From Desulfosudaceae bacterium (GTDB lineage: Bacteria; Desulfobacterota; Desulfobacteria; Desulfobacterales; Desulfosudaceae), in contig CAXXDV010000003.1 in assembly GCA_963674745.2 (NCBI GenBank), positions 64,001-128,000 on the forward strand: DNA of 64,000 bases, written 5' to 3'. Every line of letters starts with the position of its first letter. The stretch's first letter is position 1. The notes beneath the pieces are model-generated. The model was not told where the DNA came from. It did no database searches and worked only from the letters and a program-made list of their open reading frames with translations. Shown here piece by piece: positions 40,153 to 58,609 of this stretch. The position numbers were made by a program, and so were the translations under genes.

Positions 40153-40211
40153 AAAAGTAGTCCTGCCTTTAACTTTAACTGATTAAATACTCGGATATGT
40201 ACGAGGTGTTT

Positions 40212-41972
40212 ATGTTTCAAGATGATGAAAAAGAGATGGAAAAGATAAAGCATGCTGAAGAAAATTGGCGAAAAAACCTGCTTGAGAAACGGGTCGAGCG
40301 GTTTAATCTGGCCAAAAGTCCGACAACCTTTTACAGCCCGGCTGCTTTGACAAAACATGATTTTATGGAAAAGGTCGGTTTCCCCGGTGAGTATCCCTTT
40401 ACGGCCGGCAATAACCCTTTTGATTTCTGGCGGGCTTTTGCCGAAGACGCCGCTAAAATGGGATATCGCCCGGATTGGGGCGGAGCCGGAAAAGTCGGCA
40501 AGTACGGCGGATTCGGCACCCCGGCCGATTACCGCGACTACCTCTTTCGCATGCAGTCCATGGGAAGAAAAGGCGGTCCCAATATTGCTTTTGACCTGGC
40601 CACCCAGTGTGGCTATGATCCGGACAGCGCCCGGGCCATCGGCGAAATCGGACGCGTCGGCGTGTCGGTGGCTTCTTTCCGGGATTTTCAGATCATTTAT
40701 GAAGCCTATACCGGTGATCTTGATATTGACAAAGTGCCGTCCAATTTCACCATCAATGCGCCGGCAGCCGTTATTATCGCCATGTATGCCGTGCTGGCAA
40801 AAAAACGGGGTATCCCCCTGGAACACCTGGCCGGTACGCCTCAGAACGACATCCTCAAAGAGTTTATCGCCCGCGGCACCTATATTTTTCCGCCGCGGCA
40901 ATCCATGCGCCTGTTCCGGGACATCTGCGCTTTTTGCGTGGGACATATGCCCAGGCTCAACATCAATAGTATCGGGGGTTATCATATCCGTGAAGCCGGC
41001 GCCAGTCGGGTTCAGGACCTGGCCTTTTCCCTGGCCAACGGCAAAGCCTATATTCAGGCCGGCCTTGAAGCCGGGCTGGAAGTTGACGCGTTTGCCCCCC
41101 GGTTTACCTTTAATGCCTTTGGGGGCAGCATGGAAATGTACCAGGAGATCGCCTTTCAGAGGGCGGCCCGACGCATGTGGGCCAGAATGCTCAAAGAGGA
41201 ATTCGGGGCTAAGGATAAGCGCAGCATGATCATCCGCCAGCCCATTACCGCTCATATCGGTTGTTCTTCCACCACCCTCAACCGGCCGCTGAACAACCTG
41301 GCCCGGGCGGTTGTGGGCGGCCTGGCGGCCGGTATGTCCGGCGGCATGCCGGGTGTGTATCCGCCTTTTGATGAACCCCTGGGCCTGGGCCACAGCCAGG
41401 AGGCGGTTCAGTTGCAACTGGATGCCACGCGCATCATGATTTACGAAGCCAAAGTCGCCGATGTCAACGACCCCTGGGCCGGATCTTATTTTATGGAGTC
41501 CCTGACCGATGAAATCGAGACGGACGCACTGGCGGAGATGAAAAAAATCGACGACATGGGCGGCGCGGTGGCGGCCATCGAAAGCGGTTACATGCAACGG
41601 GCCGTGGCCAGAAGTGCTTATGAGCGGCAAAAACAGATCGAACGCCAGGAAACGTTCCTGGTCGGGGTCAACTGTTTTACCGGCGAGAACGAAATCACCG
41701 TCAACGTCAATCGCGAGGTCGAGGCCACCTATGACCCGGAACTGATGAAGACCGCCGAAGAGCGGCAGAAAGCGGCACTGGCACAGTTAAAACAGGAAAG
41801 AGATGATAAGGCCGTATCCGGTGCCCTGGCGACGTTAAAAGGCCATGCCGCCGATCCGGATAAAAACCTGATGCCGGGTATCTGTGACTGTGTTGAACAG
41901 GAGGCTACCCTGCAGGAGATATGCGATGTGCTCAGGGAGGTGTTTGGAGAGGCGGAGCCGGTCAAGCTCTAA
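40212..41972 (+). CDS. Methylmalonyl-CoA mutase-family large subunit, probably (1-methylalkyl)succinyl-CoA mutase
   Basis: GFPGEYPFT, TPQNDILKEFIARGTYIFPP, GYHIREAGA and DPWAGSYFMESLT motifs; lies in the ass cluster. Confidence 0.88.
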   Translation: MFQDDEKEMEKIKHAEENWRKNLLEKRVERFNLAKSPTTFYSPAALTKHDFMEKVGFPGEYPFTAGNNPFDFWRAFAEDAAKMGYRPDWGGAGKVGKYGGFGTPADYRDYLFRMQSMGRKGGPNIAFDLATQCGYDPDSARAIGEIGRVGVSVASFRDFQIIYEAYTGDLDIDKVPSNFTINAPAAVIIAMYAVLAKKRGIPLEHLAGTPQNDILKEFIARGTYIFPPRQSMRLFRDICAFCVGHMPRLNINSIGGYHIREAGASRVQDLAFSLANGKAYIQAGLEAGLEVDAFAPRFTFNAFGGSMEMYQEIAFQRAARRMWARMLKEEFGAKDKRSMIIRQPITAHIGCSSTTLNRPLNNLARAVVGGLAAGMSGGMPGVYPPFDEPLGLGHSQEAVQLQLDATRIMIYEAKVADVNDPWAGSYFMESLTDEIETDALAEMKKIDDMGGAVAAIESGYMQRAVARSAYERQKQIERQETFLVGVNCFTGENEITVNVNREVEATYDPELMKTAEERQKAALAQLKQERDDKAVSGALATLKGHAADPDKNLMPGICDCVEQEATLQEICDVLREVFGEAEPVKL

Positions 41973-42136: not shown

Positions 42137-42271
42137 GATGGCAAAGTACAAAGTTCTAGTCCGGCTTAAAATTGGGGGCGTGCAAATCCTGAGGAATGCA
42201 GAGTACTTAAAGTACGTGAAATCCCGAAGGGCGCGGCGCAACACAGATCTTGAACTTTTTACTTTGCCATC
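42137..42271. repeat. MITE-like element, second family (related copy at 58608-58731)
   Basis: TIRs GATGGCAAAGTAcAAAGTTC / GAACTTTtTACTTTGCCATC; core GCAAATCCTGAGGAATGCAG.GTAC...AGTACGTGAAAT.CCGAAGG. Confidence 0.75.
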
Positions 42272-42339
42272 CCAGTTTCGACTTTTTACGAATGCATCAA
42301 AATTGCTTCGATGCAAAATGGATAACGAAGGGTCGTTTT

Positions 42340-43284
42340 ATGAATGATAACTGGGAAGCGCTGATTGAGGGATTGAAAAACGGCCGCCCGCGGGCGCTGT
42401 CACGCCTGATTACCCGGGTGGAAAACCGTGAGCCCGGCTGGGAAGAGGCCATGAGAACCATTTATCCCGCCACCGGCCGGGCCAGGATTTTCGGTATCAC
42501 CGGGTCTCCCGGGGCCGGGAAAAGTACCCTCACCAAGGAACTCTCACTGGTGCTTTTGGAAAAAGGCCTGTCTATCGGTATTATCGCGGTTGATCCGTCC
42601 AGCCCCTTTTCAGGAGGCGCTTTACTGGGTGACCGCTTGCGCATGCAGGCACTTTACGAAGTGCCTCAAGTGTTTATCCGCTCCATGGCGACGCGCGGCC
42701 GCATGGGCGGGCTGTGTCATGCCGCCCGGGATGTGACCCGCATCCTGGATGCCTTCGGCAAGGACATCATTCTGATTGAGACCGTGGGCGTGGGCCAGGA
42801 CGAGATCGAGATTGTCCGTGTTTCAGATTCGGTGATGGTGGTCTGCGTGCCCGGTCAGGGCGATGGCATTCAGGCCATCAAGGCCGGCATCATGGAAATC
42901 GCCGATTTTTTTGTGGTCAACAAGGCCGATCGTGACGGTGCCGATGAACTGGCCGCCGACATCAACGCCATGCTGGAATTATCAACCCAGGCCGACGGCG
43001 CTAAACCACCGGTGTTGAAAACATCGGCCCTTAAAAAACAGGGCATAGAAGCATTGGCTGACTTTATCCTGCGGCCGCGAGCTGAGAACCGGCATTTTGA
43101 GAGGAAAAATATCCGGGAAGAGATTATGGGGCTGCTGGAAGGTGATGTCTCACGGCGGTTGCGTAACAGTCTTGAAAACAACCAGCGGATGAACGACCTG
43201 GTAGAGAAAATCGCCCGCCGTGAAACCGATCCTTATTCCGTGATGGAAGAACTTTTAAACGATTTAATCGATAAGATACGTTAA
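42340..43284 (+). CDS. meaB: MeaB/ArgK GTPase chaperone of the B12 mutase
   Basis: GSPGAGKST, DPSSPFSGGALLGDRLRM, IETVGVGQDE and VNKAD motifs. Confidence 0.95.
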   Translation: MNDNWEALIEGLKNGRPRALSRLITRVENREPGWEEAMRTIYPATGRARIFGITGSPGAGKSTLTKELSLVLLEKGLSIGIIAVDPSSPFSGGALLGDRLRMQALYEVPQVFIRSMATRGRMGGLCHAARDVTRILDAFGKDIILIETVGVGQDEIEIVRVSDSVMVVCVPGQGDGIQAIKAGIMEIADFFVVNKADRDGADELAADINAMLELSTQADGAKPPVLKTSALKKQGIEALADFILRPRAENRHFERKNIREEIMGLLEGDVSRRLRNSLENNQRMNDLVEKIARRETDPYSVMEELLNDLIDKIR

Positions 43285-43749: not shown

Positions 43750-45083
43750 GGTTCTTCTCCCAATTAGTGGGAGGAGTTAAGCTGCTAATAAAAAATGGAC
43801 ATCATCAGTTCTTTCTTCTATCCAGAAAGTTGAGAGACAATTCTGGAAGAAAGGAGACCGATGATGTCCGCTATGAGTATAAAGCCCTATCTCCCTTTTT
43901 GTCGAGTCCGTTTTACAAAACAAACGGTTTCTGACGCCGGAGATATGGCGATGATAATTGCCGAGCCAGACGAGCGCTATCGCCCTATTTGTTATAGTTG
44001 CGGCAGCCCGGCTCAAGGCGTTCATGACCAGGCCAGACGTCCGTTGCGGGATTTGAACCTTGGGGCCGCAAATGTATGGATCAACTGCAGATATCGTAAA
44101 ATTTATTGCCCCCGTTGCCAGGGTATTCGGGTTGAAGACCTGGACTTTTTCAATCCGTACCAGCGGGTTACCAAAAGACTGGCCCTTTATATCCATGAGT
44201 TGTGTAAGATTTTGACGGTCTCTGAAGTGGCCGCGCATTTGGAGCTCAACTGGAAGACGGTCAAAAATATTGATAAAAACTTTTTGGAAGAATCGTTTGG
44301 AAGGACGGACTACAGCGACTTGAGCATACTGGCGGTTGATGAAATCGCCATCCATAAAGGCCATACGTATATGACTGTTGTTTTGGACTATCAAACCGGT
44401 CGGGTGGTATGGCTTGGCAGGGGCCGATCCGTGGAGACGCTTCAAGTCTTTTTCGCCGGCATGAGCCAGGAACAGAAACAGGCGCTGGAAGCCATCGCCA
44501 TGGATATGTGGGATCCTTACATTAAAACGGTTCGAGAGAATGTGCCTCATGTAAAGATCGTGTTTGATCTTTTTCATGTGGTTCACGCATTTAATAAGGT
44601 GATCGACAAAGTTCGAATAGAAGAGTTTAGAAAAGCGACGAAGCCGGACCAGGCGATATACAAAGGAACCAAGTATTTGCTGCTGTCCAATCCCCAGAAT
44701 ATTCATAGCAGTGAGGCCCGGCAGCATTTGCGGCAGCTTCTTGAAATTAATGAAACCATATCTACGGTCATGATTTTGAAAGATTGTCTGAAGCGAATAT
44801 GGGACTATCAAAAAAGGGGCTGGGCCAAAAAGAGATTGGATGAATGGTGTGCCCTGGCCAGAACGGTGAGCCACAGGCCCGTACAGAAATTTGCCGACAT
44901 GCTTGAAAGGCACGCTTACGGCATCCTGAACCATTGCGATTATCCGATTCATACCAGTAAAATAGAAGGTGTTAATAATAAAATTAAGGTCATAAAACGA
45001 AAATCCTATGGATTTCATGACGATAGATACTTTACATTAAAGGTCATACAGGCCTTTTCCTCCCACTAATTGGGAGAAGAACC
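43750..45083 (+). mobile_element. Intact ISL3-family insertion sequence, 1334 bp
   Basis: Perfect 26-bp TIR GGTTCTTCTCCCAATTAGTGGGAGGA; 8-bp target duplication AAAACGTT at 43742-43749 and 45084-45091. Confidence 0.96.
43861..45069 (+). CDS. ISL3-family transposase
   Basis: Zn finger CxxC...CxxC; AVDE, AMDMW, DLFHVV and EGVNNKIKVIKRKSYGF motifs. Confidence 0.96.
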   Translation: MMSAMSIKPYLPFCRVRFTKQTVSDAGDMAMIIAEPDERYRPICYSCGSPAQGVHDQARRPLRDLNLGAANVWINCRYRKIYCPRCQGIRVEDLDFFNPYQRVTKRLALYIHELCKILTVSEVAAHLELNWKTVKNIDKNFLEESFGRTDYSDLSILAVDEIAIHKGHTYMTVVLDYQTGRVVWLGRGRSVETLQVFFAGMSQEQKQALEAIAMDMWDPYIKTVRENVPHVKIVFDLFHVVHAFNKVIDKVRIEEFRKATKPDQAIYKGTKYLLLSNPQNIHSSEARQHLRQLLEINETISTVMILKDCLKRIWDYQKRGWAKKRLDEWCALARTVSHRPVQKFADMLERHAYGILNHCDYPIHTSKIEGVNNKIKVIKRKSYGFHDDRYFTLKVIQAFSSH

Positions 45084-45119: not shown

Positions 45120-46466
45120 ATGACAGAAAACGCATCGATCCCGGTAACCGAGAAAATAGCCGCTTTTGTGGCGGATACCCGGGCCGAAGATATTCCGGAA
45201 GAGATGTTCGCGCATGCCCGGGTTGCTTTTATGGACTGGGTGGCCGTCACCCTGGGCGGCAAAGACGACCCCCTGGTCGACAAGTTGATATCGTATACGA
45301 ACAAACTGGGCGGATTGCCCCAGGCCACGATTATCGGCCGGGGCGGAATGAAAAAAAGCGTAGCCGATGCGGCCCTTATCAACGGCGCTGCCTCGCACGC
45401 CCTGGATTACGATGATACCCTGGTTTCGTTTCTGGGACATCCATCGGTGACCCTGTTCCCGGCCCTGGTGGCCCTGTCCGAATGGCGGGAGGAAAGCGGC
45501 CGGGATTTTCTGACTGCTTATCTGATCGGCCTTCAGGCCGGCGCCGTGGTTGGTGCCTGTGCCAGCCTGGACCACTACATGGCCGGCTGGCACGCTACGG
45601 CCACATTGGGGCATATCGCCTCGGCCGCGGCCTGCGCCCGGCTGCTTGGCCTGGGAAAAACACAGGCGCAATACGCGCTGGGCATCGGTGCCACCCAGTC
45701 TTCCGGATTGAAACGCGTTTTCGGCACCATGTGCAAGCCGTTTCATGCCGGCCGGGCTTCTCAATCAGGACTGATGGCGGCATTACTGGCGGCTGATGAT
45801 TTTACCAGTGCCGAAGATATTCTGGAAGGTCCCCAGGGGTTTTTTCAGGCCCTGAAAGGCACCATCAATAAAGATGCCGTTGAACTGTTGGGCCTTGGTT
45901 GGGACGTGGTCAACCTGTCCCAGAAATATCATGCCTCCTGTCATGCCACCCATTCTCCTCTGGAAGCCGCCCTGGCAGTGGTGAATGAAGAAAGGCTGTC
46001 TCCGGACCGGATTGCCGCCATTACCGTTCATTCTTCCCAGCTGGCCCTGGACGCGGCCGGCAAGCTGAAACCGCAGACCGGGCTGGAAGGTAAATTCAGC
46101 ATTCCTTTCTGCGTGGCCAACGCCATTATTACCGGTGTGACCGGGACGCAGGCCTTTACCGACCAGCAGGTCAAAGATTTTCGCATACAGGACCTGATGG
46201 GGAAAATAACGGTCAAGCTGGATGCCGGTAAAACCGCTCTGGAATCAACGATTGTCGTGGAAGATACCGAAGGAAACCGGTTTGAGCGATCTTCCGATAT
46301 CCTGCAGGAGATTCCGCCGCTGGAGCTGAAAGAAACACGGGTACGGCAGAAATTTATCGATCTTTGCCAACCGGTCATCGGCGAAGACAAAACAAAAGAG
46401 GCCATGAAGGATATCGATAATCTGGAAACGTTGTCGTCCATGAAAATATTCGCGGAGAAATTCTGA
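45120..46466 (+). CDS. MmgE/PrpD-family protein (candidate alkylsuccinate epimerase)
   Basis: HALDYDD...GHP, GWHATAT, KPFHAG, KYHASCHATH and GKFSIP motifs; directly upstream of the activating enzyme. Confidence 0.88.
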   Translation: MTENASIPVTEKIAAFVADTRAEDIPEEMFAHARVAFMDWVAVTLGGKDDPLVDKLISYTNKLGGLPQATIIGRGGMKKSVADAALINGAASHALDYDDTLVSFLGHPSVTLFPALVALSEWREESGRDFLTAYLIGLQAGAVVGACASLDHYMAGWHATATLGHIASAAACARLLGLGKTQAQYALGIGATQSSGLKRVFGTMCKPFHAGRASQSGLMAALLAADDFTSAEDILEGPQGFFQALKGTINKDAVELLGLGWDVVNLSQKYHASCHATHSPLEAALAVVNEERLSPDRIAAITVHSSQLALDAAGKLKPQTGLEGKFSIPFCVANAIITGVTGTQAFTDQQVKDFRIQDLMGKITVKLDAGKTALESTIVVEDTEGNRFERSSDILQEIPPLELKETRVRQKFIDLCQPVIGEDKTKEAMKDIDNLETLSSMKIFAEKF

Positions 46467-46515: not shown

Positions 46516-47496
46516 ATGAATGAAAAAACCTGCCTGGTGACGGATATACAGCGATACTCGGTCAATGACGGGCCGGGCTTTCGCACCAATGTTTATTTAA
46601 AAGGATGTCCCCTGAAATGCACCTGGTGCCACAACCCGGAAACCATTTCCCCGGAACCGGACATATACTGGAAGCGCCGTTTGTGTGTGCAGTGCGGCGC
46701 CTGCCTGGATGTCTGCGACCGGGATGCCATATCCCCTCCCATTCCACCGGAAGAAGCGCAGCAGGAAGGCGCGACCTATCAGAAGATTATCCGTGAACGT
46801 TGCAATCGTTGTCTCAAGTGTATTGATGCCTGTGCCTATGACGCCCTGGAGATTTCCGGCCTCCCCATGACGGTGGAATCCGTTATGGCGGAAGTGGAGG
46901 CGGACCGTATTTTTTATGATACGTCCGGCGGCGGTATGACCTTAAGCGGTGGTGAGCCCACTTCGCAACGGGAGTTCTCTCTGGCGCTGCTGGCCGAAGC
47001 CAAAAACAGGCGCATTCATACCTGTCTGGATACCAACGGATTTTGCAATTGGGATTCCCTGGCTTCATTGTTACCAATGACCGATATCGTTCTGTTTGAC
47101 CTCAAGCACATGGATCCGGAACGGCACAAAGCCGGGACCGGTGTCGACAATAAACGCATTCTTGAAAACCTGGCCAGGCTGGCCGCTTCCGGTAAGGAAT
47201 ACTGGATCCGGATCCCGGTGGTCCCCGCTTTTAATGATGGTCCGGAATTTCATAAAACAGCCGCCCGTTTTCTGGCTGATCTGCCATCCCATCCGGCCCG
47301 GATCGACCTTCTGCCGTTTCATAACTGGTGTGAAAACAAGTATGACTGGCTCGGCCGGGACTGGGCACTGAAATTCACCGAGGCCATGCAGCCGTTTTTT
47401 CTGGAGTTGCCGGCGGAAATCTACCGGGATCAGGGCTTGACCGTGACCATCGGCGGCTCCGGGTTTGAGGAAACCGGGAAAGTCCAGAGCGCTTGA
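46516..47496 (+). CDS. assD: Glycyl-radical enzyme activating enzyme (radical SAM with 2x[4Fe-4S] insert)
   Basis: DGPGFRT, GCPLKCTWCHNPE, two CxxCxxCxxxC motifs and GGMTLSGGEP. Confidence 0.9.
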   Translation: MNEKTCLVTDIQRYSVNDGPGFRTNVYLKGCPLKCTWCHNPETISPEPDIYWKRRLCVQCGACLDVCDRDAISPPIPPEEAQQEGATYQKIIRERCNRCLKCIDACAYDALEISGLPMTVESVMAEVEADRIFYDTSGGGMTLSGGEPTSQREFSLALLAEAKNRRIHTCLDTNGFCNWDSLASLLPMTDIVLFDLKHMDPERHKAGTGVDNKRILENLARLAASGKEYWIRIPVVPAFNDGPEFHKTAARFLADLPSHPARIDLLPFHNWCENKYDWLGRDWALKFTEAMQPFFLELPAEIYRDQGLTVTIGGSGFEETGKVQSA

Positions 47497-50293: not shown

Positions 50294-50458
50294 ATGGCTG
50301 TATGTAATGAATGTAAACGTTTTTTCGCGCAGGATGAACAACCGGAAAAAGGTGACTGCGTCAGAAGAGGGGAAGATCCCCGGCAGGCGTTTTATACAGC
50401 CAGGCCGGTGACTGCCGAACAGGATGCGTCATCCTGTCCCGATTTTCAGAAGAAATAA
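50294..50458 (+). CDS. assC: Alkylsuccinate synthase gamma subunit, 54 aa (BssC/MasC-like; not in the ORF track)
   Basis: TAAGGAGG RBS; MAVCNECKRFF...KGDCVRRGED...ARPV...CPDFQKK has the four-Cys pattern of BssC/TutF. Confidence 0.88.
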   Translation: MAVCNECKRFFAQDEQPEKGDCVRRGEDPRQAFYTARPVTAEQDASSCPDFQKK

Positions 50459-50513: not shown

Positions 50514-53012
50514 ATGTACGAAGCGGCCAAAACAATAGAAGAACTTGAGGAAAAGCAGCAGTGGTGGTGGGCGGCTGAAAAAAAACGTTCCAAGCGGCTG
50601 GACTACCTGAGAAAAGCCATCTGGAAAAAAGGCGCCGTGGGTGGCCTTTACAATCCCGGCGTGAAAGTTGAGCTGGAAAGGCCTCAGCTCCAGACCCAGA
50701 AAGCCAGGGAACTGGAAATGTCGCCCGATCCCTGGGTAATGAAATTCGCTCACATGTTCGCCCATGTGCTGGACAACAAAACCATTTTTATTACCGATCA
50801 TTCGCAGCTGGTGGGATATAACGCCGACCTTCCCAACACCATCGGCTGGGACCCGTCGATCGCTTCAATCCTCAATGAAGAGGTCTTTAACGACCCCTCT
50901 TCCCTGCCCGAACCGATCGAAGAATCCCAGAAAATCATCGCCGATATTAAGAATTACTGGGCAGGTAAGTCCGACCTGGACAAGATTATGCCGTATCTTG
51001 ATCTGGATGACATGATGAAGGTCCTGTCCGGCGCGGTCGGTTGGGGCGTTCCCCTGGCCCGGGGCGGTTATTCCGGCAAGGATTACGAGTATATCATGAC
51101 CGGCAAGCGCGGGTTCGAAGAGGTTATTGCCGAGCTTGACAAAAATATCGACGAAGCCGACGCCAAGGTTCATGAACCCGCGGCCAGCCAGGAAATCATG
51201 GAACTTTATGACAAGATGAACAACTGGGAGGCCATGCAGATCTGTCTGGAAGCCTGTATCCGGCATGCCAAGCGATATGCCCGCCTGGCCCGGATCATTG
51301 CTGAAAATTTTGAGACCGATGAAAAACGCAAACAGGAACTCCTGCAGATCGCCGAAGTGTGTGAGCGCGTTCCGGCCCAGCCGCCGAGAACCCTTCAGGA
51401 ATCCCTGCAGTACGATCTTTTTATTCAGCTTTTCAGCCGCACCGAAGCCATTGAAGGCGCCTGGCCGGCTCGCCCGGACTATTATCACGGACCTTACTAT
51501 CAAAAGGATGTTGTCGAGGATAAACGACTTACTCACGAAGAAGCCGTGGAACTGGCCGGCGAATTTCTCATCCGGGCGGCGGAAGTGGAACAGTACAAGC
51601 CCAAGTTTGCGCGGGAAGGGCTTCAGGGCATCAGCGGTACCTGGGTCTGGACACTGGGTGGGGTCAACAAGGACGGAAGCGATGCCTGCAACGGCATGAC
51701 CATTGCCCTGCTTCAGGCGGCCCGGTTGGTGCGGGTGGCCAATCCCACCTTTGCCTTCCGCTGGCATCCCAAGGTGTCCGATGAAGTCATGAAAGAGTGC
51801 TTTGAATGCATCCGTCAGGGACTGGGATACCCTTCCATGCGCAATGACCCCATTCTGATCGCCAATGCCATGAACTGGCACGGTCATCCCATCGATGAGG
51901 CCAGGACCTGGGTACACCAGGCCTGCATGTCACCGGCGCCGACCACCAAGCACGGATTCCAGCCCATGCGCATGGCCAATGCCACCGTCAACTGCGCCAA
52001 GATTATTGAATATGTTTTTTCCAGCGGGTTTGACAATGTGTTTAATATACAGATCGGTGCGGAAACACCGCCGGTGGAGGATTTGACCGATTTTGAAAAA
52101 GTTTACGAGGCCTGGGAAACCCAGATGAAAACCCTTTTCAGCCTGTTGGTGCGGCCGGTCAACCGGGCCCGTTCTTTGGCCCCGACCATGACCCCCCGGC
52201 CCTTTTTGTCCGGTATCTCCGAACGGTCGGTTGAAAGCGGCAAGGATGTCTGCGACCCCTCCGTCAGCCGGGGGAATTCCTGGATTACGGCCTTCACCTG
52301 GGTAGAGAACGCCGACAGTCTGGCAGCCGTAAAGAAGTTGGTTTTTGACGAAAAGAAATATACCCTGGCCGAACTCAAGGAAGCCATGGACGCCAACTGG
52401 GAAGGCAAAGAAGATATGCGGCTGGATTTTGTCAAGAACACACCCAAATGGGGCAACGACGACGATTATGTGGATGATATCATGCTGCGCTGCCTGCGTT
52501 CGGCGGCCAAGTTCTCCCGGGAAATAAAAGATCCCATGGGCAACAACTGGCCGATTTTGCCCGAGAACGTCAGCGGTAACATCCATTATGCCAACGTGGT
52601 CGGCGCCCTGCCCAACGGCCGGCGCCTGGGTGATGCCCTGTATGATGGCGGTATCTCTCCGGGTCCGGGACTGGACAAAAAAGGTCCCACGGCAGTACTC
52701 AAGTCCTGCGGTAAAATCGACCATATCTCCGACGGCCGGGCGTTTCTCTTGAATCAGCGGCTTTCGCCGACCCAACTGGCCGGCGAAAAAGGCTTCCAGA
52801 TGTGGAAGGCCTATATGCGTGCCTGGGCGGATCTGGGTATTGACCATGTGCAGTTCAACATGGTCGATGACACCACCTTGCGGGCTGCCCAGAAAGATCC
52901 CGAGGATTATCAGGAAGTGATTGTGCGGGTGGCCGGATACAGCGCCCATTTTGTGGATATCAGCCGGAAAACCCAGGATAATATTATTCAACGAACCATT
53001 CAGGGATTGTAA
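50514..53012 (+). CDS. assA: Alkylsuccinate synthase catalytic alpha subunit (AssA/MasD, glycyl radical enzyme)
   Basis: 832 aa; FECIRQGLGYP; Cys loop HQACMSP; glycyl radical motif RVAGYSAHF. Confidence 0.93.
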   Translation: MYEAAKTIEELEEKQQWWWAAEKKRSKRLDYLRKAIWKKGAVGGLYNPGVKVELERPQLQTQKARELEMSPDPWVMKFAHMFAHVLDNKTIFITDHSQLVGYNADLPNTIGWDPSIASILNEEVFNDPSSLPEPIEESQKIIADIKNYWAGKSDLDKIMPYLDLDDMMKVLSGAVGWGVPLARGGYSGKDYEYIMTGKRGFEEVIAELDKNIDEADAKVHEPAASQEIMELYDKMNNWEAMQICLEACIRHAKRYARLARIIAENFETDEKRKQELLQIAEVCERVPAQPPRTLQESLQYDLFIQLFSRTEAIEGAWPARPDYYHGPYYQKDVVEDKRLTHEEAVELAGEFLIRAAEVEQYKPKFAREGLQGISGTWVWTLGGVNKDGSDACNGMTIALLQAARLVRVANPTFAFRWHPKVSDEVMKECFECIRQGLGYPSMRNDPILIANAMNWHGHPIDEARTWVHQACMSPAPTTKHGFQPMRMANATVNCAKIIEYVFSSGFDNVFNIQIGAETPPVEDLTDFEKVYEAWETQMKTLFSLLVRPVNRARSLAPTMTPRPFLSGISERSVESGKDVCDPSVSRGNSWITAFTWVENADSLAAVKKLVFDEKKYTLAELKEAMDANWEGKEDMRLDFVKNTPKWGNDDDYVDDIMLRCLRSAAKFSREIKDPMGNNWPILPENVSGNIHYANVVGALPNGRRLGDALYDGGISPGPGLDKKGPTAVLKSCGKIDHISDGRAFLLNQRLSPTQLAGEKGFQMWKAYMRAWADLGIDHVQFNMVDDTTLRAAQKDPEDYQEVIVRVAGYSAHFVDISRKTQDNIIQRTIQGL

Positions 53013-53094: not shown

Positions 53095-53457
53095 ATGGCA
53101 AGAAAAAGTCGACAGGAGTTCGCCAATGCGTCCGGTGTTTTTGGGGTACAACAGACCCAGCCGGTGGAACAGGGAAAAGAGGTGCCGGATAAGCCCTGTG
53201 GTATGTGCGTGCATTTTTCCGAAAGTGCCTTTTCCAGCGACGGTCGAGGTGCCTGCAAGAAACTCAAGGAAGGCTCCAATATCAAGGTGGATCCGCCGGT
53301 TTACGTACTGGAAGGTAAAAACGGTTACATGATCAGGGCGTTGACCGACGCGGCCGGGTGCAAATATTATGAAAAAATGAAGTTCGTGGATAAAGACGGA
53401 TATGAATGCAGTGATCCGCAATTCAGGCGGACGTTGCGGCAGTTCCAGGACAAATAA
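53095..53457 (+). CDS. assB: Alkylsuccinate synthase beta subunit, 120 aa (AssB/MasB-like)
   Basis: GGAGGAGG RBS; CGMC...C...C Cys pattern; follows assA. Confidence 0.78.
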   Translation: MARKSRQEFANASGVFGVQQTQPVEQGKEVPDKPCGMCVHFSESAFSSDGRGACKKLKEGSNIKVDPPVYVLEGKNGYMIRALTDAAGCKYYEKMKFVDKDGYECSDPQFRRTLRQFQDK

Positions 53458-53478: not shown

Positions 53479-53715
53479 ATGAAATGTACAGAATGCAGCC
53501 ATGAAGCACCGATGGCGGATTTTCGCTATCTTTACAATGCCCGTATTGATGCTTCGGTCAGTATCCGGCAGTGCACCAGCTGTGGAGCACACCTTGCAGT
53601 AGATGAAATTAAGGGAGAAGTCGTCCAGACGCTGGCCGATGGGGTTGCCCCCTGGGGTAAATCCACTGGTATAGAGGGCCTGGCGGATGACGTAACCGGC
53701 CAGGCGAGCGCTTGA
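53479..53715 (+). CDS. masE: MasE-like small rubredoxin-like subunit of alkylsuccinate synthase
   Basis: AGGAGG RBS; MKCTECSH...FRYLYNARIDA...RQCTSCG. Confidence 0.82.
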   Translation: MKCTECSHEAPMADFRYLYNARIDASVSIRQCTSCGAHLAVDEIKGEVVQTLADGVAPWGKSTGIEGLADDVTGQASA

Positions 53716-53804
53716 GTCACGGTTCCGATAGACAAACGCAATATGTAGAACAGGTACTTTGCCAAAGGCGCAGGGTGCCTGTTTTATTTTAAAAGGAGGA
53801 CGGC

Positions 53805-54146
53805 ATGGAGTTTTCTTGCACGGCCTGCGGTCATACCGATGACCATATGCTGTTTCCCTATCTATGCCGCAACGGCTGACCGGCCACCGGAGAATCGGAA
53901 CTCCGGCAGTGTCCCAGGTGCGGGCAGGAACTTGTATTTTCAAAAACCGAGGCCCTGAGCCGGGAAGAATCGTTGATCGATCGGCTGGTGACCGACATCA
54001 GCCGCGTCAGTCGGGGTGATGATGACGCAACACGGCAGGCCGCCATCGAGAACATGAAGAAACTTTACCGGATCAATCAGCGCTGGAACCTGCCCGGCGT
54101 AAGGGAATTTATTTTAAAGAAACAAAAGGAACTGATGGGCTGGTAA
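53805..54146 (+). CDS. MasE-like CxxC...CxxC protein with in-frame TGA at codon 25 (candidate selenoprotein, 113 aa)
   Basis: AGGAGGA RBS; MEFSCTACGHTDDHMLFPYLCRNG(TGA)PATGESELRQCPRCG...LMGW*; hairpin CCGGAG-AATCGGAA-CTCCGG starts 7 nt after the TGA. Confidence 0.75.
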
Positions 54147-54174
54147 ATCTCATTATCAGATAAGGAGACAGGCA

Positions 54175-55020
54175 ATGAACCAGGCAGAAGGCCTGACCGT
54201 ACCGGAACACGAGAAGTATTTTTTTCTGCCCCGGCCGGTAACCGAGAATCTGGACAGGATTAAACTGCTGGCCGAGCGGCATCCGGTCAATGTGCTGGTG
54301 ACCGGCCGCCAGGGTTGCGGTAAATCAACCATGGTGCGTCAGTTTGCCGCCCGCAACAATCGCCCCCTGGCCACCTTTCAGGTCGGCATGCTGTCCGAGC
54401 CCGGCCAGTTGTTCGGTGAATACCGGCTCCGCGACGGCCGGACCGAATACCAGGAATTTCTTTTTCCCAAAGCCGTGCGCACCCCCGGATGTGTGGTTCA
54501 TTTAGAAGAAATCAACCGCCCGGAACACCCCAAGGCCTTAAACATGCTGTTTTCCATTTTGTCCGATGACCGGGCCATATGGACTGATGAACTGGGGTTG
54601 GTCAAGGTTGCCCCGGGGGTTGTTTTTTTCGCCACCCTTAACGAGGGCGAGGAATTTGCCGGTACGGAGATGCTGGATGCCGCCCTGGCCGACCGGTTTT
54701 ATGTGACCATGCTGGATTATCTGCCGCCGGCCGTGGAAACCGAAGTGCTGCGCGAAAAAGGCGGTATCAGCGAGGCCGACGCCTTGACGCTGGTCAATAT
54801 CGCCAATAAACTACGGGCCAACGCCCAGGAACCCATCGTTGTTTCCACCCGTCATACGCTGATGATGGCTGAAATGATCGCCGTCGGCGCCTCGGTTCGG
54901 GAAGCCATCACTTACAGTCTTCAGATCGACCGGGATGTGCTGGAGTCGGCCCTGTTGTCTTTGCACCTTGAAACCGGTGCCACCGACAGTGGGCGGGAGG
55001 ATGATTATCAGTCCTATTAA
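54175..55020 (+). CDS. assE: AAA+ ATPase of the MoxR/CbbQ type (BssE/AssE-like)
   Basis: GRQGCGKST Walker A, HLEEINRP Walker B, ATLNEG and LDAALADRF motifs. Confidence 0.85.
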   Translation: MNQAEGLTVPEHEKYFFLPRPVTENLDRIKLLAERHPVNVLVTGRQGCGKSTMVRQFAARNNRPLATFQVGMLSEPGQLFGEYRLRDGRTEYQEFLFPKAVRTPGCVVHLEEINRPEHPKALNMLFSILSDDRAIWTDELGLVKVAPGVVFFATLNEGEEFAGTEMLDAALADRFYVTMLDYLPPAVETEVLREKGGISEADALTLVNIANKLRANAQEPIVVSTRHTLMMAEMIAVGASVREAITYSLQIDRDVLESALLSLHLETGATDSGREDDYQSY

Positions 55021-56698
55021 ACCGGAAGCCTGTTCGCCGACAGCAACCGAACTGTCACGGTTCTGGGCCAGAAACCGGGGACTGTCGGAGGCCTCCGCCC
55101 TGGCCAATCTGCTCAAGTCACTGCGAAAAGTGGCCGGCCATCTGGGGCCCAATGTCGGCCAGGTCCTTTTCCCGGGCATGTCTTTTGCCGATGCCGCGGC
55201 TATTATGATTGACCCTTCACCGGCCCGTGACTCGGATTACCCTCTGAACTTCCATATTATTGATGCCCTGGTAGGCCAGGTCGTCCATGAGGCTTTTCGC
55301 AGAGTCGAATGGAGCCAACGGGTCTGGATCCTTCTGGAAGATTTTATGGGCACCATAACCGGCCGTCAGCGGGTCAGCTTTCAGAAGCTGGTCGATATGG
55401 CGGAAACGATTTATGTGGATTATGCCGCCGGCCACACAACCGCCGGTCTTTATACCCACAAAGCCCGTCACGACGCCTTGCATCAATTATTATCGCAGCA
55501 CTTCAGAACAGATACGCTGGATTTTTTTCTGCTGGCCTGGCTGCAGTCCGCCTGGCCGGATTCCGGGGAACAGATACCGGTCCTTGACGGCATACCTGCT
55601 GAACTGCTCCAGTCTTTGCGTCCGGTGCTTCAGGCATTGAAAACCATTTCCGCTTCACCTGTCCGTCCCATGGAGCGTTGCCGGCAAAGAGCCGATTTGT
55701 ATCAGCGCCAATGGCAGGCGCTGGGGTCACAAATAATGACGTTGCCGGTCAAGGACAAAACCCTTTTTTATTATCCTGAATACGGCGTTTCAAAGAAACC
55801 GGGTAAAGTTTCCGCCGGAAAAAGTCTGCCGCCTTTGCCGGCATCCTTGATTCGGGATATGGAGCTGCAGTTGACGACCGGTGCCATGGACCTGACGCCG
55901 ATTGTCCATTCCGTGGCCGGTTATGACAACCCGGATGTTGTTCGAATGTCCCGCTGGGACTACAGTCAGCCCTGCCGGCCGGTGATCGATCGCCGGATGG
56001 TGTCGCGGCTGAAATCGATTTTTCTCAACTACGGTCCCCATCGCAAAGTTACCAGTACCGGCTTGAGCTCGGGGAAGGTTGATCCCCGGCGTCTTTATCG
56101 GGCCCCTTTGACGGGTAAATGTTTCCGGCAGCGGTATACGGTGGCCGAGGACCGCTGGCAGATATGCCTGCTGATCGATGCCAGCGGATCCATGCGGGGT
56201 AATAAAATGCGGATCGTGGAAAACACCATGGCCAACCTGAACAAGGCGATTTACGGCGGCCGGAATCGACTGTCGGTCTATGCCTATTTTGAAGTCAACA
56301 ATATCTGCATGTTTTCCAGCCTTCTGTCCGATAACCGGTTGCTGACCGTGCCGCCGGCCGGCAAGACGGCCTCGGGCCAGGCGATTATCGCCGCTGCCTG
56401 GCTTATGGAAAGAGGCCATGGACGACAACGTAACCTGATCGTGCATATTACCGATGGAGAATCAAACTTCGGTTGTGATGTCCGTTATGGCATTGATTAC
56501 TGTCGCCGTGAAAAAGTATCTCTGGTTACCCTGGGGTGCGGTTGTCAGGACGTGACGGCCATGAGAAAACAATACGGGCATACGATTCAGTTTTTAAAAA
56601 GCTACGAACAACTTCCCCCGGCCATGGAGCGGCTGTTCAAACGCCTGTTTCTCCATGCTGATCCAAGTGCTGTTCCAGTAAACCAGGTAAGTAAATAA
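55001..56698 (+). CDS. assF: VWA-domain partner protein (BssF/AssF-like; start uncertain)
   Basis: MIDAS motif LIDASGSM, SGKVDPRRLYR and HITDG; overlaps the AAA+ gene. Confidence 0.82.
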   Translation: MIISPIKPEACSPTATELSRFWARNRGLSEASALANLLKSLRKVAGHLGPNVGQVLFPGMSFADAAAIMIDPSPARDSDYPLNFHIIDALVGQVVHEAFRRVEWSQRVWILLEDFMGTITGRQRVSFQKLVDMAETIYVDYAAGHTTAGLYTHKARHDALHQLLSQHFRTDTLDFFLLAWLQSAWPDSGEQIPVLDGIPAELLQSLRPVLQALKTISASPVRPMERCRQRADLYQRQWQALGSQIMTLPVKDKTLFYYPEYGVSKKPGKVSAGKSLPPLPASLIRDMELQLTTGAMDLTPIVHSVAGYDNPDVVRMSRWDYSQPCRPVIDRRMVSRLKSIFLNYGPHRKVTSTGLSSGKVDPRRLYRAPLTGKCFRQRYTVAEDRWQICLLIDASGSMRGNKMRIVENTMANLNKAIYGGRNRLSVYAYFEVNNICMFSSLLSDNRLLTVPPAGKTASGQAIIAAAWLMERGHGRQRNLIVHITDGESNFGCDVRYGIDYCRREKVSLVTLGCGCQDVTAMRKQYGHTIQFLKSYEQLPPAMERLFKRLFLHADPSAVPVNQVSK

Positions 56699-57040: not shown

Positions 57041-58609
57041 ATGGCAATTGAATGGAACGTCGGATACATCGCATATAAAAGGGCTTTGATGATGCCGGAC
57101 AAGGTAGCGGTTATTTATGAGGATGAGCCGGTGACCTATCAGCAGCTGAACGAGGGAGTGAATCGGTGCGCCCATATGTTGCAGCAGAAGGGTTTAAAAA
57201 AAGGCGATCGCATCTGTGCTGTTCTGCTGAACTGCATGGAGTTTCTGGAGCTGTATTTTGCGGCCGCCAAGCTGGGCATTATTTTTGTGCCCCTCAACTG
57301 GCGCATGGTCGGGCCGGAACTGGAATACCAGATCAATGATTGCGGTGCCAAGCTGCTGGCCTTTCATGACTCATTTCTGGGCAGCATTGATTTAATTCGT
57401 TCCAGCCTGAATGTCGACGCGGACAAGTTTGTCTTTCTGAAAAGCGGCAGCCCGGAACTGCCCGGCTTCAAACTGCCGGACTGTCCGGAATGGGCGGAAG
57501 ATTATCCGCTTCTGGTAAAGGACCAGAGCGACGCCGAACCGGTTCCTGAAGAACCGGTCCTGATGTCCGATCCGTTAAGCATTGTCTATACATCCGGCGT
57601 CACCGGGGATCCCAAAGGCGCGATGCTCTCACACGAACAGACCTATTACAAGAACGCCCAGGTCGGATATTATACGGATTGCACTTCGGAAGACGTACTG
57701 ATCGCCCAGATGCCGCTGTTTCATTCCGGGGGGTTGTTTATCGTGACCACACCGGGATTGTCCGCCGGCCTGACCCTGGTCATGCGGCGCGGGTTTGACG
57801 CCAATGAATTTGCCGAAGACATTCAACGTTATCGCGGTACCATTGTTTTCGCCCTGACCACCATGTGGCGGCTGATCCTGGAGACCGGCAAGCTGGATGA
57901 AATCGATGTCGGCAGTGTCCGCTGTGTGGTCGGCGGCGGCGAGCGAACACCGCCCGTTCTGTTTGATGAACTGGCCAGGCGCGGTCTTTACCTGCAGCAG
58001 GGATTCGGCCAGACGGAGAATTCGGCCATGATGGTTGTCCCCAAGGCGGACATCAAGCGGAAAATGGGGTCCATCGGAAAACCCGGCTTTTTTACCGATA
58101 TCTGGATTGCCGGACCTTCCGGCGAACGGCTGCCGCCCGGTGAAATCGGTGCGATTGTCGCCAAGGGGCCGACGGTGATGAGCGGCTACTGGAATAAGCC
58201 GGAAGAAACCGCCAGGGCCATCGTCAACGGCGTATTGGATACGGGTGATCTGGGATACATGGATGAGGAAGGCTTCTTTTATATTGTCGACCGGGCCAAA
58301 GACATGTATCGCAGCGGCGGTGAAAATGTTTATCCGGCAGAGATCGAAAAAGTGCTGCTGGGTCATCCCAAAATCAACAATATCGCTATATTCGGGGTCC
58401 CTGATAGAAAATGGGGTGAAGTGGGTATGGCCTGCGTGGTGCCGGAAAAGGGAGAGACCATTACCAAAGAAGAGATCCATCAGTTTTTAACGGAAAAGGT
58501 CGCCAAATACAAATACCCGGCCCACCTGGAGATCGTTGATGAACTTCCCATGACGGCTACCATGAAGGTGAAGAAAGGGGCCTTAAAGGAACAGTTCGCC
58601 CAGAATTGA
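57041..58609 (+). CDS. assK: AMP-forming acyl-CoA ligase (AssK-like)
   Basis: YTSGVTGDPKG, GFGQTE, DTGDLG and DRAKDMYRSGGENVYPAEIE motifs. Confidence 0.85.
   Translation: MAIEWNVGYIAYKRALMMPDKVAVIYEDEPVTYQQLNEGVNRCAHMLQQKGLKKGDRICAVLLNCMEFLELYFAAAKLGIIFVPLNWRMVGPELEYQINDCGAKLLAFHDSFLGSIDLIRSSLNVDADKFVFLKSGSPELPGFKLPDCPEWAEDYPLLVKDQSDAEPVPEEPVLMSDPLSIVYTSGVTGDPKGAMLSHEQTYYKNAQVGYYTDCTSEDVLIAQMPLFHSGGLFIVTTPGLSAGLTLVMRRGFDANEFAEDIQRYRGTIVFALTTMWRLILETGKLDEIDVGSVRCVVGGGERTPPVLFDELARRGLYLQQGFGQTENSAMMVVPKADIKRKMGSIGKPGFFTDIWIAGPSGERLPPGEIGAIVAKGPTVMSGYWNKPEETARAIVNGVLDTGDLGYMDEEGFFYIVDRAKDMYRSGGENVYPAEIEKVLLGHPKINNIAIFGVPDRKWGEVGMACVVPEKGETITKEEIHQFLTEKVAKYKYPAHLEIVDELPMTATMKVKKGALKEQFAQN

Follow-up and report, generated by a model that had tools for sequence, protein, structure and literature searches.

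A probable selenoprotein, AssX, encoded in the operons of alkane-activating glycyl radical enzymes

Does the space between masE and assE in an alkylsuccinate synthase operon hold a selenoprotein gene? The question is raised by a stretch of 64,000 nucleotides from a Desulfosudaceae bacterium (GenBank assembly GCA_963674745.2, contig CAXXDV010000003.1, positions 64,001 to 128,000), here called the window, in which an ATG at 53805 opens a frame of 113 codons that runs to a TAA at 54144-54146 and contains a single in-frame stop, a TGA at 53877-53879. The frame and its product are named assX and AssX here. The original prediction held that this TGA encodes selenocysteine (Sec), and the coordinates on which it was built all hold: the frame, the Shine-Dalgarno sequence, the TGA, the 28 nucleotides between the TAA and the ATG of assE at 54175, and the two arms of a hairpin behind the TGA.

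Our best explanation, to which we give a probability of roughly 0.85, is that the frame encodes one 113-residue selenoprotein that is auxiliary to the alkylsuccinate synthase (Ass) enzyme. That positions 53805-54146 are a genuine selenoprotein gene is, on comparative grounds, highly probable. The features of the gene are listed below (SECIS, selenocysteine insertion sequence).

53794-53800, plus strand: Shine-Dalgarno sequence AGGAGGA, read from the sequence, 4 nucleotides before ATG 53805
53805-54146, plus strand: assX, predicted selenoprotein gene, 113 codons plus TAA, with Sec at codon 25
53877-53879, plus strand: UGA predicted to be read as Sec, codon 25 (codon 25 states of homologues; Sec machinery in the genome)
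53887-53906, plus strand: SECIS-like hairpin, 6-base-pair stem (53887-53892 with 53901-53906) and 8-nucleotide loop, starting 8 nucleotides after the UGA
53805-53942, plus strand: N-terminal rubredoxin-like (MasE/delta-like) domain, residues 1-46 (profile and fold matches to 9o8u_D)
53943-54143, plus strand: C-terminal three-helix domain, residues 47-113 (AlphaFold2 model, invariant columns)

Codon 25 and the hairpin behind it

Homologues of AssX were collected in two overlapping sets. For the first, the read-through protein was used as the query against 401 genomes of the same class, a strong match being one with E below 1e-20; the second comes from a pattern scan in which each GTDB species was represented by one genome, the window's own genome left out, and holds 73 confirmed loci. 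There are 27 strong matches in 25 of the 401 genomes, 22 with exactly one TGA and five with none. In all 22 the TGA is at codon 25, and a Cys codon takes its place in the three TGA-free matches that were retrieved as loci, which belong to one genus, tied to Desulfatibacillum through the named locus L058. In the second set, codon 25 is TGA in 55 loci, TGC in 11, TGT in six and TTA (Leu) in one. The record titles of these 73 loci include Desulfobacterales families, Smithella, Syntrophobacteria, Desulfomonilia, Geobacteraceae, Bacillota and Dehalococcoidia, and the isolate Desulfosarcina alkanivorans PL12 among them has the Sec form. Such recurrence of one TGA at one codon goes well beyond chance. 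The alternation of TGA with a Cys codon is a signature of Sec sites. On a quick and poorly resolved family tree (34 of 70 inner branches open, the window's row left out), changes between Sec and Cys number about five to six, as a rough count.

The sequence on both sides of the TGA evolves as protein-coding sequence. Among 55 distinct Sec-form sequences (54 loci and the window), nucleotide diversity at codon positions 1/2/3 is 0.34/0.29/0.61 in codons 2-24, 0.29/0.15/0.55 in codons 26-56, which reach from the TGA to the first downstream in-frame start in the window, and 0.41/0.33/0.63 in codons 57-110. The third position is thus more diverse than the first and second both before and after the TGA, which is a coding signature, and only one additional in-frame stop occurs in codons 1-110 over all 55 sequences. 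In the family alignment, invariant residues flank the TGA on both sides, and codons 26-56, which carry the invariant C36-P-x-C39-G, are the most constrained stretch of the protein. The original prediction had looked for Cys or a conserved TGA at codon 25 with conservation on either side, and this is what 55 TGA and 17 Cys codons among the 73 loci, with a single Leu, provide. Several homologues use TGA as their true terminator, so that a single gene would give the codon two meanings, in line with SECIS-dependent recoding. Elsewhere in the operon TGA is an ordinary stop as well; masE ends in it.

The machinery for Sec insertion, whose presence had been left to be confirmed, is complete in the window's own genome, with all four components above curated cut-offs: selA (607.9 bits), selB (369.8 bits), selD (368.6 bits, with one in-frame TGA of its own) and tRNA-Sec (75.1 bits). 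selA is also found in 10 of 10 other genomes tested, seven with Sec forms and three with Cys forms. The window's genome contains two full-length SelB-like genes (G000:C1:1156265-1158157 and G000:C3:1795409-1797292), one above the TIGR00475 cut-off (369.8 bits) and the other just below it (239.9 versus 242.25 bits).

In the proposed mechanism, UGA25 would be recoded to Sec by SelB and tRNA-Sec, guided by the hairpin that begins 8 nucleotides downstream, whose arms are CCGGAG (53887-53892) and CTCCGG (53901-53906). In an RNAalifold consensus on an alignment of 22 Sec forms, columns 11-16 pair with columns 25-30. The outer pair (columns 11:30) is G-C in 13 forms, C-G in seven and broken in two, and two other stem pairs vary through G-U only. 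Paired cells amount to 98.5%, versus 37-58% when the 3' arm is slid by one to three columns. In the covarying pair, one partner is the middle base of codon 28 (Thr ACC or Cys TGC) and the other is the third, synonymous base of Arg34 (CGG or CGC).

A comparison of Sec with Cys forms separates the demands of the RNA from those of the protein, as the Cys forms encode the same G-E-x-D-L-R peptide. All six pairs are formed in 46 of 55 Sec forms versus two of 17 Cys forms (Fisher p 1e-7, uncorrected for relatedness). Gly29 is GGA or GGG in 54/55 Sec forms versus 8/17 Cys forms, and Leu33 is CTC or CTT in 50/55 versus 6/17. This preference is site-specific and not a matter of general codon usage, as it has no counterpart at other Leu and Gly codons: Leu33 is CTC in 47 of 54 Sec forms, whereas three further invariant Leu codons are CTC in 7, 19 and 6 of 54, and Gly29 is GGA in 42 of 54, compared with 7 and 10 at Gly24 and Gly9. 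Selection on synonymous sites thus appears to maintain the hairpin only in forms that have the TGA, and the hairpin serves as a candidate SECIS. Of the structure originally proposed, the hairpin just 3' of the UGA stands, with its covariation and its retention specific to TGA forms; the possible lower stem GG.CA/TG.CC falls away, its columns being non-complementary in most homologues.

The only Cys forms that retain the full hairpin are the Desulfatibacillum loci L058 and L108, both nested in Sec clades on the quick tree. Because of this nesting and the intact hairpin, our analysis suggests that they have changed from Sec to Cys recently and that their SECIS has not yet decayed. Smithella forms have the hairpin in a shifted register. 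Two Bacillota Sec forms (L083 and L114) lack the common hairpin and have a different stem-loop about 22-43 nucleotides after the UGA, whose outer pair is C-G in one and U-A in the other. A second helix of three base pairs occurs at 53912-53924, downstream of the main hairpin (columns 36-38 with 46-48). Gly40 is GGG or GGA in 50/54 Sec forms versus 6/17 Cys forms and, because of this difference in codon choice, the SECIS may extend past the 6-base-pair stem. The assX hairpin has no obvious sequence likeness to the SECIS of selD in the same genome, a comparison that is uninformative.

The protein and its predicted selenocysteine loop

The original prediction described AssX as a paralog of MasE with an added helical C-terminal domain, and both parts of that description are supported. 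In (1-methylalkyl)succinate synthase (MASS) the delta subunit is MasE, according to the accessible part of the MASS structure paper (PMC12358834). Pairwise, the resemblance of AssX to the 78-residue MasE-like protein encoded upstream is weak (BLASTP E 1e-4, 14 of 41 residues identical, with a two-residue insertion around the TGA). The best solved-structure match of the AssX family profile is PDB 9O8U chain D, "1-methyl alkyl succinate synthase subunit Mas E" (E 0.0011), with profile positions 3-44 aligned to chain residues 1-40 and a two-residue insertion at the Sec loop. An AlphaFold2 model of AssX has a mean pLDDT (predicted local distance difference test score) of 85.5, with only residues 25-27 below 50, and consists of a small beta-rich domain (residues 1-46) followed by helices at 47-66, 74-94 and 99-111. 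The top PDB match of this model in Foldseek is again 9o8u_D (probability 1.00, template modelling score 0.53 on the target, root-mean-square deviation 2.5 Å over 48 columns, E-value 0.083). Cys5, Cys8, Cys36 and Cys39 are invariant in the family, in a CX2C...CX2C pattern, and would be the four metal-binding Cys of a MasE-like domain. The profile and the model together support the N-terminal domain as a MasE paralog of a predicted metal-binding type. As the MasE-type tail is absent and the match ends at residue 44, AssX is best described as a paralog of the delta domain and not as the delta subunit as defined.

The C-terminal domain, which would replace the MasE tail that contacts the glycyl-radical domain, has invariant N91, R93, W94 and N95 in an N-x-R-W-N motif (residues 91-95). 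A wide search with VIA-align returned generic three-helix-bundle matches only (Z up to 8.3, a range rated common). Co-folding of this domain with AssE and AssF scored 0.00, a result from single sequences with no controls that is evidence neither way.

Of particular interest is the inserted loop, which contains Cys21 and Sec25 and, in most homologues, also Cys28, giving a U-P-A-C motif. The loop occurs in three flavours: C-x-x-G-U-P-A-C in the majority of homologues, C-R-N-G-U-P-A-T in the window and one other clade, and C-A-N-C-U-P-A-T. Each listed Sec form keeps Cys at one or more of positions 21, 24 and 28. The actual insertion of selenium, the binding partners and the chemistry of AssX are inferred. 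Most plausibly, Sec25 and a neighbouring Cys would form a selenenylsulfide redox couple, although the assignment of Sec25 as redox-active rather than as a metal ligand is tentative.

In the competing assignment, which we regard as rather unlikely, AssX is a real selenoprotein whose Sec25 is a metal ligand, with U-P-A-C-G acting as a third rubredoxin or zinc-ribbon knuckle. Sec25 and Cys21 could then form or extend a metal site, for instance in a carrier for an insertion machinery made of AssE and AssF, and MoxR-VWA pairs of the NorQ/NorD and CobS/CobT type do insert metals. The Nop10 zinc ribbon is also matched by the family profile, over residues 23-55 and with two C-P-x-C-G knuckles (E 0.043), and a 2026 selenoproteome review, in the part accessible, allows that some bacterial Sec residues may be metal ligands (PMC13188914). 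However, residue 28 is Thr in the window and in two other clades, which leaves the knuckle incomplete, and low confidence in the model is confined to the Sec loop.

Other readings of the TGA

Three readings dispense with Sec altogether. It is very improbable that UGA25 is read through as Trp, Cys or Arg by a near-cognate tRNA, helped by a leaky UGA-C context. The base after the TGA is C in at least 90% of Sec forms, and UGA-C is a weak termination context; against this, codon 25 alternates with Cys only, save for the one Leu, the hairpin at SECIS distance appears to be maintained only where the TGA is present, and selA occurs in all genomes tested.

That TGA25 is a genuine stop, separating a 24-residue CxxC peptide from a short C-terminal protein, is hardly credible, although it is how the gene appears in public data. 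A search of 1.84 billion representative proteins with the AssX profile yields 52, most of them fragments of 52-95 residues that start at profile positions 29-64, so that their gene calls begin downstream of the TGA; a word-indexed search agrees. The public call in the window's genome is likewise a 57-residue open reading frame from TTG 53973, and homologues have a downstream in-frame ATG, GTG or TTG from which such fragments can be called. A true stop would, however, leave codons 26-56 of the window untranslated, and these are the most constrained codons, with the invariant C36 and C39. The first downstream start wanders from codon 35 to codon 110 among homologues, 17 homologues have Cys and an uninterrupted frame, and the domain that the TGA splits is predicted to fold as a single rubredoxin-like unit matching MasE.

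A pseudogene or a sequencing or assembly error at the TGA, which a lone in-frame stop in a short unannotated frame might resemble, is effectively refuted by comparative data, as the same TGA occurs at the same codon in 55 of 73 independently assembled species genomes, only one other in-frame stop occurs in 55 sequences, and a contig from an independent assembly of a run containing this DNA matches with 0 differences, though possibly from the same raw data.

Several observations weigh against AssX as a selenoprotein that serves the Ass enzyme. Our counts are drawn from related genomes and are not independent. One ass-linked homologue (L081) has Leu at codon 25, and full-length relatives further removed have Ile, or neither Cys nor Sec, at the loop position, so that the fold does not always require Sec or Cys at residue 25. 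The hairpin is short and has a single covarying pair, itself tied to the Thr/Cys difference at codon 28; nine of 55 Sec forms lack the canonical six pairs. A single-sequence fold of the 60 nucleotides after the TGA is no better than shuffles (z +0.90), and support for the hairpin therefore comes from comparison and not from energy. An Rfam scan of 53700-54200 with E up to 10 gave chance-level matches only and no SECIS family. assX is absent from four operons that have AssA and AssE (genomes G117, G272, G325 and G360). Evidence from RNA is limited to metatranscriptome contigs of relatives that span 53791-53896, 53947-54124 and 54063-54213; these are short and of low depth, the library may hold DNA, and they are not counted as evidence of expression.

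Public resources appear to have passed over the family. No Pfam or NCBIfam model reaches threshold for AssX, and the Desulfatibacillum Cys forms are labelled "hypothetical protein" (Dalk_2196, for example). Full-text literature searches for alkylsuccinate synthase together with selenocysteine returned nothing relevant (subscription-only texts and bioRxiv supplements lay outside their reach), and they revealed no relevant tie between a selenoprotein and a glycyl radical enzyme, a rubredoxin-like protein, fumarate addition or an anaerobic alkane. A search by Dalk locus tags found no discussion of the Desulfatibacillum Cys form. By term search, the word stem 'selen' is absent from the MASS structure paper (PMC12358834), from a 2026 review of glycyl radical enzymes and from a 2026 paper on the Smithella ass island, and the terms rubredoxin, glycyl, alkane and MoxR do not occur in the 2026 selenoproteome review (PMC13188914). 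AssX is well supported as an apparently undescribed selenoprotein family specific to the operons of alkane-activating glycyl radical enzymes.

Operon setting, possible role and known systems

The neighbourhood of assX is a typical alkylsuccinate synthase island, with the following genes.

40197-41972: methylmalonyl-CoA-mutase-like protein gene
42250-43284: MeaB GTPase gene (meaB-like)
43861-45069: ISL3-family transposase gene
45120-46466: MmgE/PrpD protein gene (mmgE/prpD-like)
46516-47496, plus strand: assD, glycyl-radical activating enzyme, radical SAM (Pfam Radical_SAM, Fer4, Fer4_12)
50294-50458, plus strand: assC, small subunit (open reading frame; Pfam BssC_TutF, PFL-like and Gly_radical across the assC/assA/assB region)
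50514-53012, plus strand: assA, catalytic glycyl radical subunit (open reading frame; Pfam, same region)
about 53113-53457, plus strand: assB, small subunit (open reading frame; Pfam, same region)
53479-53715, plus strand: masE-like gene, upstream paralog of assX, 78 residues, Cys3/6/32/35 (open reading frame, BLASTP, Cys pattern)
54175-55020, plus strand: assE, AAA+ ATPase of the MoxR/CbbQ-NorQ type (Pfam AAA_5 1.5e-20, CbbQ_C 4.7e-8)
54935-56698, plus strand: assF, VWA-domain protein (Pfam VWA 1.9e-7, synteny)
57041-58609: AMP-dependent ligase gene

The transposase gene is within the island, between the MeaB GTPase and MmgE/PrpD genes. The longest open reading frame of assF (from 54935) overlaps the end of assE by 86 nucleotides; a start at the internal ATG 55001, with an overlap of 20 nucleotides, is more likely. 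Between masE and assX there is a terminator-like hairpin at 53766-53790 (six pairs, a 3-nucleotide loop and a T-rich tail), which could act as an attenuator of assX-assE-assF expression relative to the structural genes; terminator-like sites in the region number two, versus a shuffle mean of 1.6, and are therefore not in excess.

Across the family, assX keeps company with assE. It is directly upstream of assE in 65 of the 68 loci with at least 900 nucleotides of downstream sequence, usually with a gap of less than 200 nucleotides, and the upstream order of assB and masE varies among loci. In the Bacillota loci an extra gene separates assX from assE, the gap being 934 nucleotides in L114 and 1524 nucleotides in the Cys-form L059 (L083 is cut off). 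In the sample of 401 genomes, 30 are AssA-positive (AssA of at least 63% identity), and 24 of these also have AssX; the 25th genome with AssX (G119) has no AssA match at that threshold. Two more AssA-positive genomes without an AssX match are fragmented. In the four operons that lack assX (L125-L128: G360:C31, G117:C200, G272:C106 and G325:C7), the interval between assA and assE holds only assB and masE, with masE followed by assE. Their lack of assX indicates a gene that is common but dispensable in some lineages, and two of the four belong to genera where another species has assX, which suggests recent loss there. A short, degraded assX-like fragment with two in-frame TGAs (L048, G106:C58:327-521), in a genome of the same family with no AssA or AssE match, is probably the remnant of a lost ass locus.

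TGA is found at the corresponding place in the loop in a distant branch of the family as well, namely in L047, L050 and one member of a tandem pair in G163. The loop motifs of this branch are S-U-S-G-P and S-U-C-G-P (L129 1006-1353 in G168:C1, L050 and G163:C10), and of the tandem copies at 273-566 and 633-935 of G163:C10 one has the TGA and the other lacks any Cys. In the one cluster of this branch that was examined, in G168 (L129), the gene has VWA and MoxR genes nearby: it is followed by a 170-residue open reading frame and a VWA protein gene, and about 8 kb away a distinct glycyl radical enzyme that shares 44% identity with AssA is encoded together with an activase and two MoxR-VWA pairs. 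G263 and G163 have such enzymes too (44-47% identical to AssA), on other contigs.

What might AssX do? assX would be the first gene translated in a conserved module, assX-assE-assF, encoding a selenoprotein, a MoxR AAA+ ATPase and a VWA protein. AssX itself would be auxiliary and non-catalytic, helping to assemble, activate or repair the alkane-activating glycyl radical enzyme: its selenol and a neighbouring Cys would do redox chemistry through a selenenylsulfide or hand over a metal, and the ATPase-VWA pair would remodel the complex. It is somewhat probable that AssX works with AssE and AssF on the Ass complex. In the accessible part of the MASS paper, masBCDE and the activase sufficed for heterologous alkylsuccinate formation (PMC12358834); for this reason, and as some operons lack assX, basic catalysis would not need the module.

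The same paper, in its accessible part, describes a MasE whose rubredoxin-like domain binds one Fe through Cys3, 6, 32 and 35, whose tail, about 20 residues long, is packed against the glycyl radical domain, and which sits where the activating enzyme must bind, its role unresolved (PMC12358834). Since AssX shares the domain of delta and delta sits there, AssX may have a role at the surface where the activase docks on the glycyl radical domain, for example by exchanging with delta or by quenching or resetting the radical. A more specific version is improbable: that the AssX selenol acts at this docking site, driven by AssE and AssF, as a radical quencher or relay, a 'deactivase' or a repair factor. 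AssX would in that case protect or reset the glycyl radical, for example on exposure to oxygen or after abortive turnover. If true, it would be the first case of a glycyl radical enzyme controlled through selenium, and most sulfate-reducing and syntrophic degraders would depend in part on selenium for anaerobic alkane oxidation.

In oil reservoirs, seeps and contaminated sediments, anaerobic alkane degradation begins with alkylsuccinate synthases, and AssX, very probably a selenoprotein, would tie selenium to the breakdown of oil hydrocarbons. The subunit composition of the synthase was settled only in 2025 and the role of its delta subunit is still open in the field, as far as the accessible parts of two sources indicate (PMC12358834, PMC13450708). 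AssX is a component that has been missed, as gene callers systematically lose assX although it is present in most ass operons examined, and it adds a selenium-containing candidate client or adaptor for the uncharacterised AssE/AssF chaperone pair. Selenium supply, or exchange of Sec for Cys or Ser, is predicted to alter enzyme maturation, radical yield or stability, which bears on the cultivation of alkane degraders and on heterologous reconstitution. For annotation, dozens of "hypothetical proteins" of 50-95 residues would become 3' fragments of one selenoprotein family, and the family offers a case study of how a SECIS decays after Sec is replaced by Cys.

Among known proteins, MasE is closest. 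In both proteins the N-terminal domain is rubredoxin-like and has two CxxC pairs, four Cys in all, and their genes are adjacent in one operon, where the window's 78-residue MasE-like protein has exactly the Cys pattern of MASS delta. AssX differs in a loop that is two residues longer and contains Cys21 and Sec25, in a three-helix domain of about 65 residues in place of the tail of about 20, and in a gene order that tracks assE and not assA. Dalk_2196 (WP_028315764.1) of Desulfatibacillum is an AssX ortholog, 45% identical over 110 residues and encoded between the ass structural genes and assE; unlike AssX of the window it has Cys at residue 25, and it keeps the full hairpin within a Sec clade.

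Small proteins with Sec between two CxxC pairs are known from other work. The deep-Sep study of Desulfosarcina sp. BuS5 reports a different small CxxC-U-CxxC protein, DW (PMC12013277). The deep-Sep 'hypothetical proteins' DW and DG and the models NF041197 and NF049953 share with AssX a small size and a Sec between two CxxC pairs in a zinc-ribbon-like module, and they come from sulfate reducers that include an alkane degrader (supplement of PMC12013277). All of these are families different from AssX, DW having 54 residues and no helical domain (same supplement). Against NF049953, zinc ribbon-containing (seleno)protein DG, AssX reaches 14.5 bits where the cut-off is 130, and it does not match NF041197, dual CXXC motif small (seleno)protein, against which the neighbouring MasE scores 15.4 bits (cut-off 40). 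Five motifs searched in the deep-Sep supplements found no AssX-like sequence, and GUPAC occurs there only in a thioredoxin (PMC12013277). With U-P-A-C in most homologues and this Sec thioredoxin carrying G-U-P-A-C, a thioredoxin-like UxxC/CxxC protein was considered for AssX and rejected: the predicted fold is rubredoxin-like, the window has U-P-A-T, and the likeness is at the level of the motif only.

The literature searched describes no small selenoprotein partner of a MoxR-VWA chaperone system. We take AssE and AssF to be akin to the BssE-type MoxR chaperone and its VWA partner, of the CbbQ/CbbO and NorQ/NorD kind. In bss operons bssB is directly followed by bssE. With MoxR-VWA systems the assX-assE-assF module shares an AssE that has both AAA_5 and CbbQ/NirQ/NorQ C-terminal domains, and AssX is its conserved first gene product.

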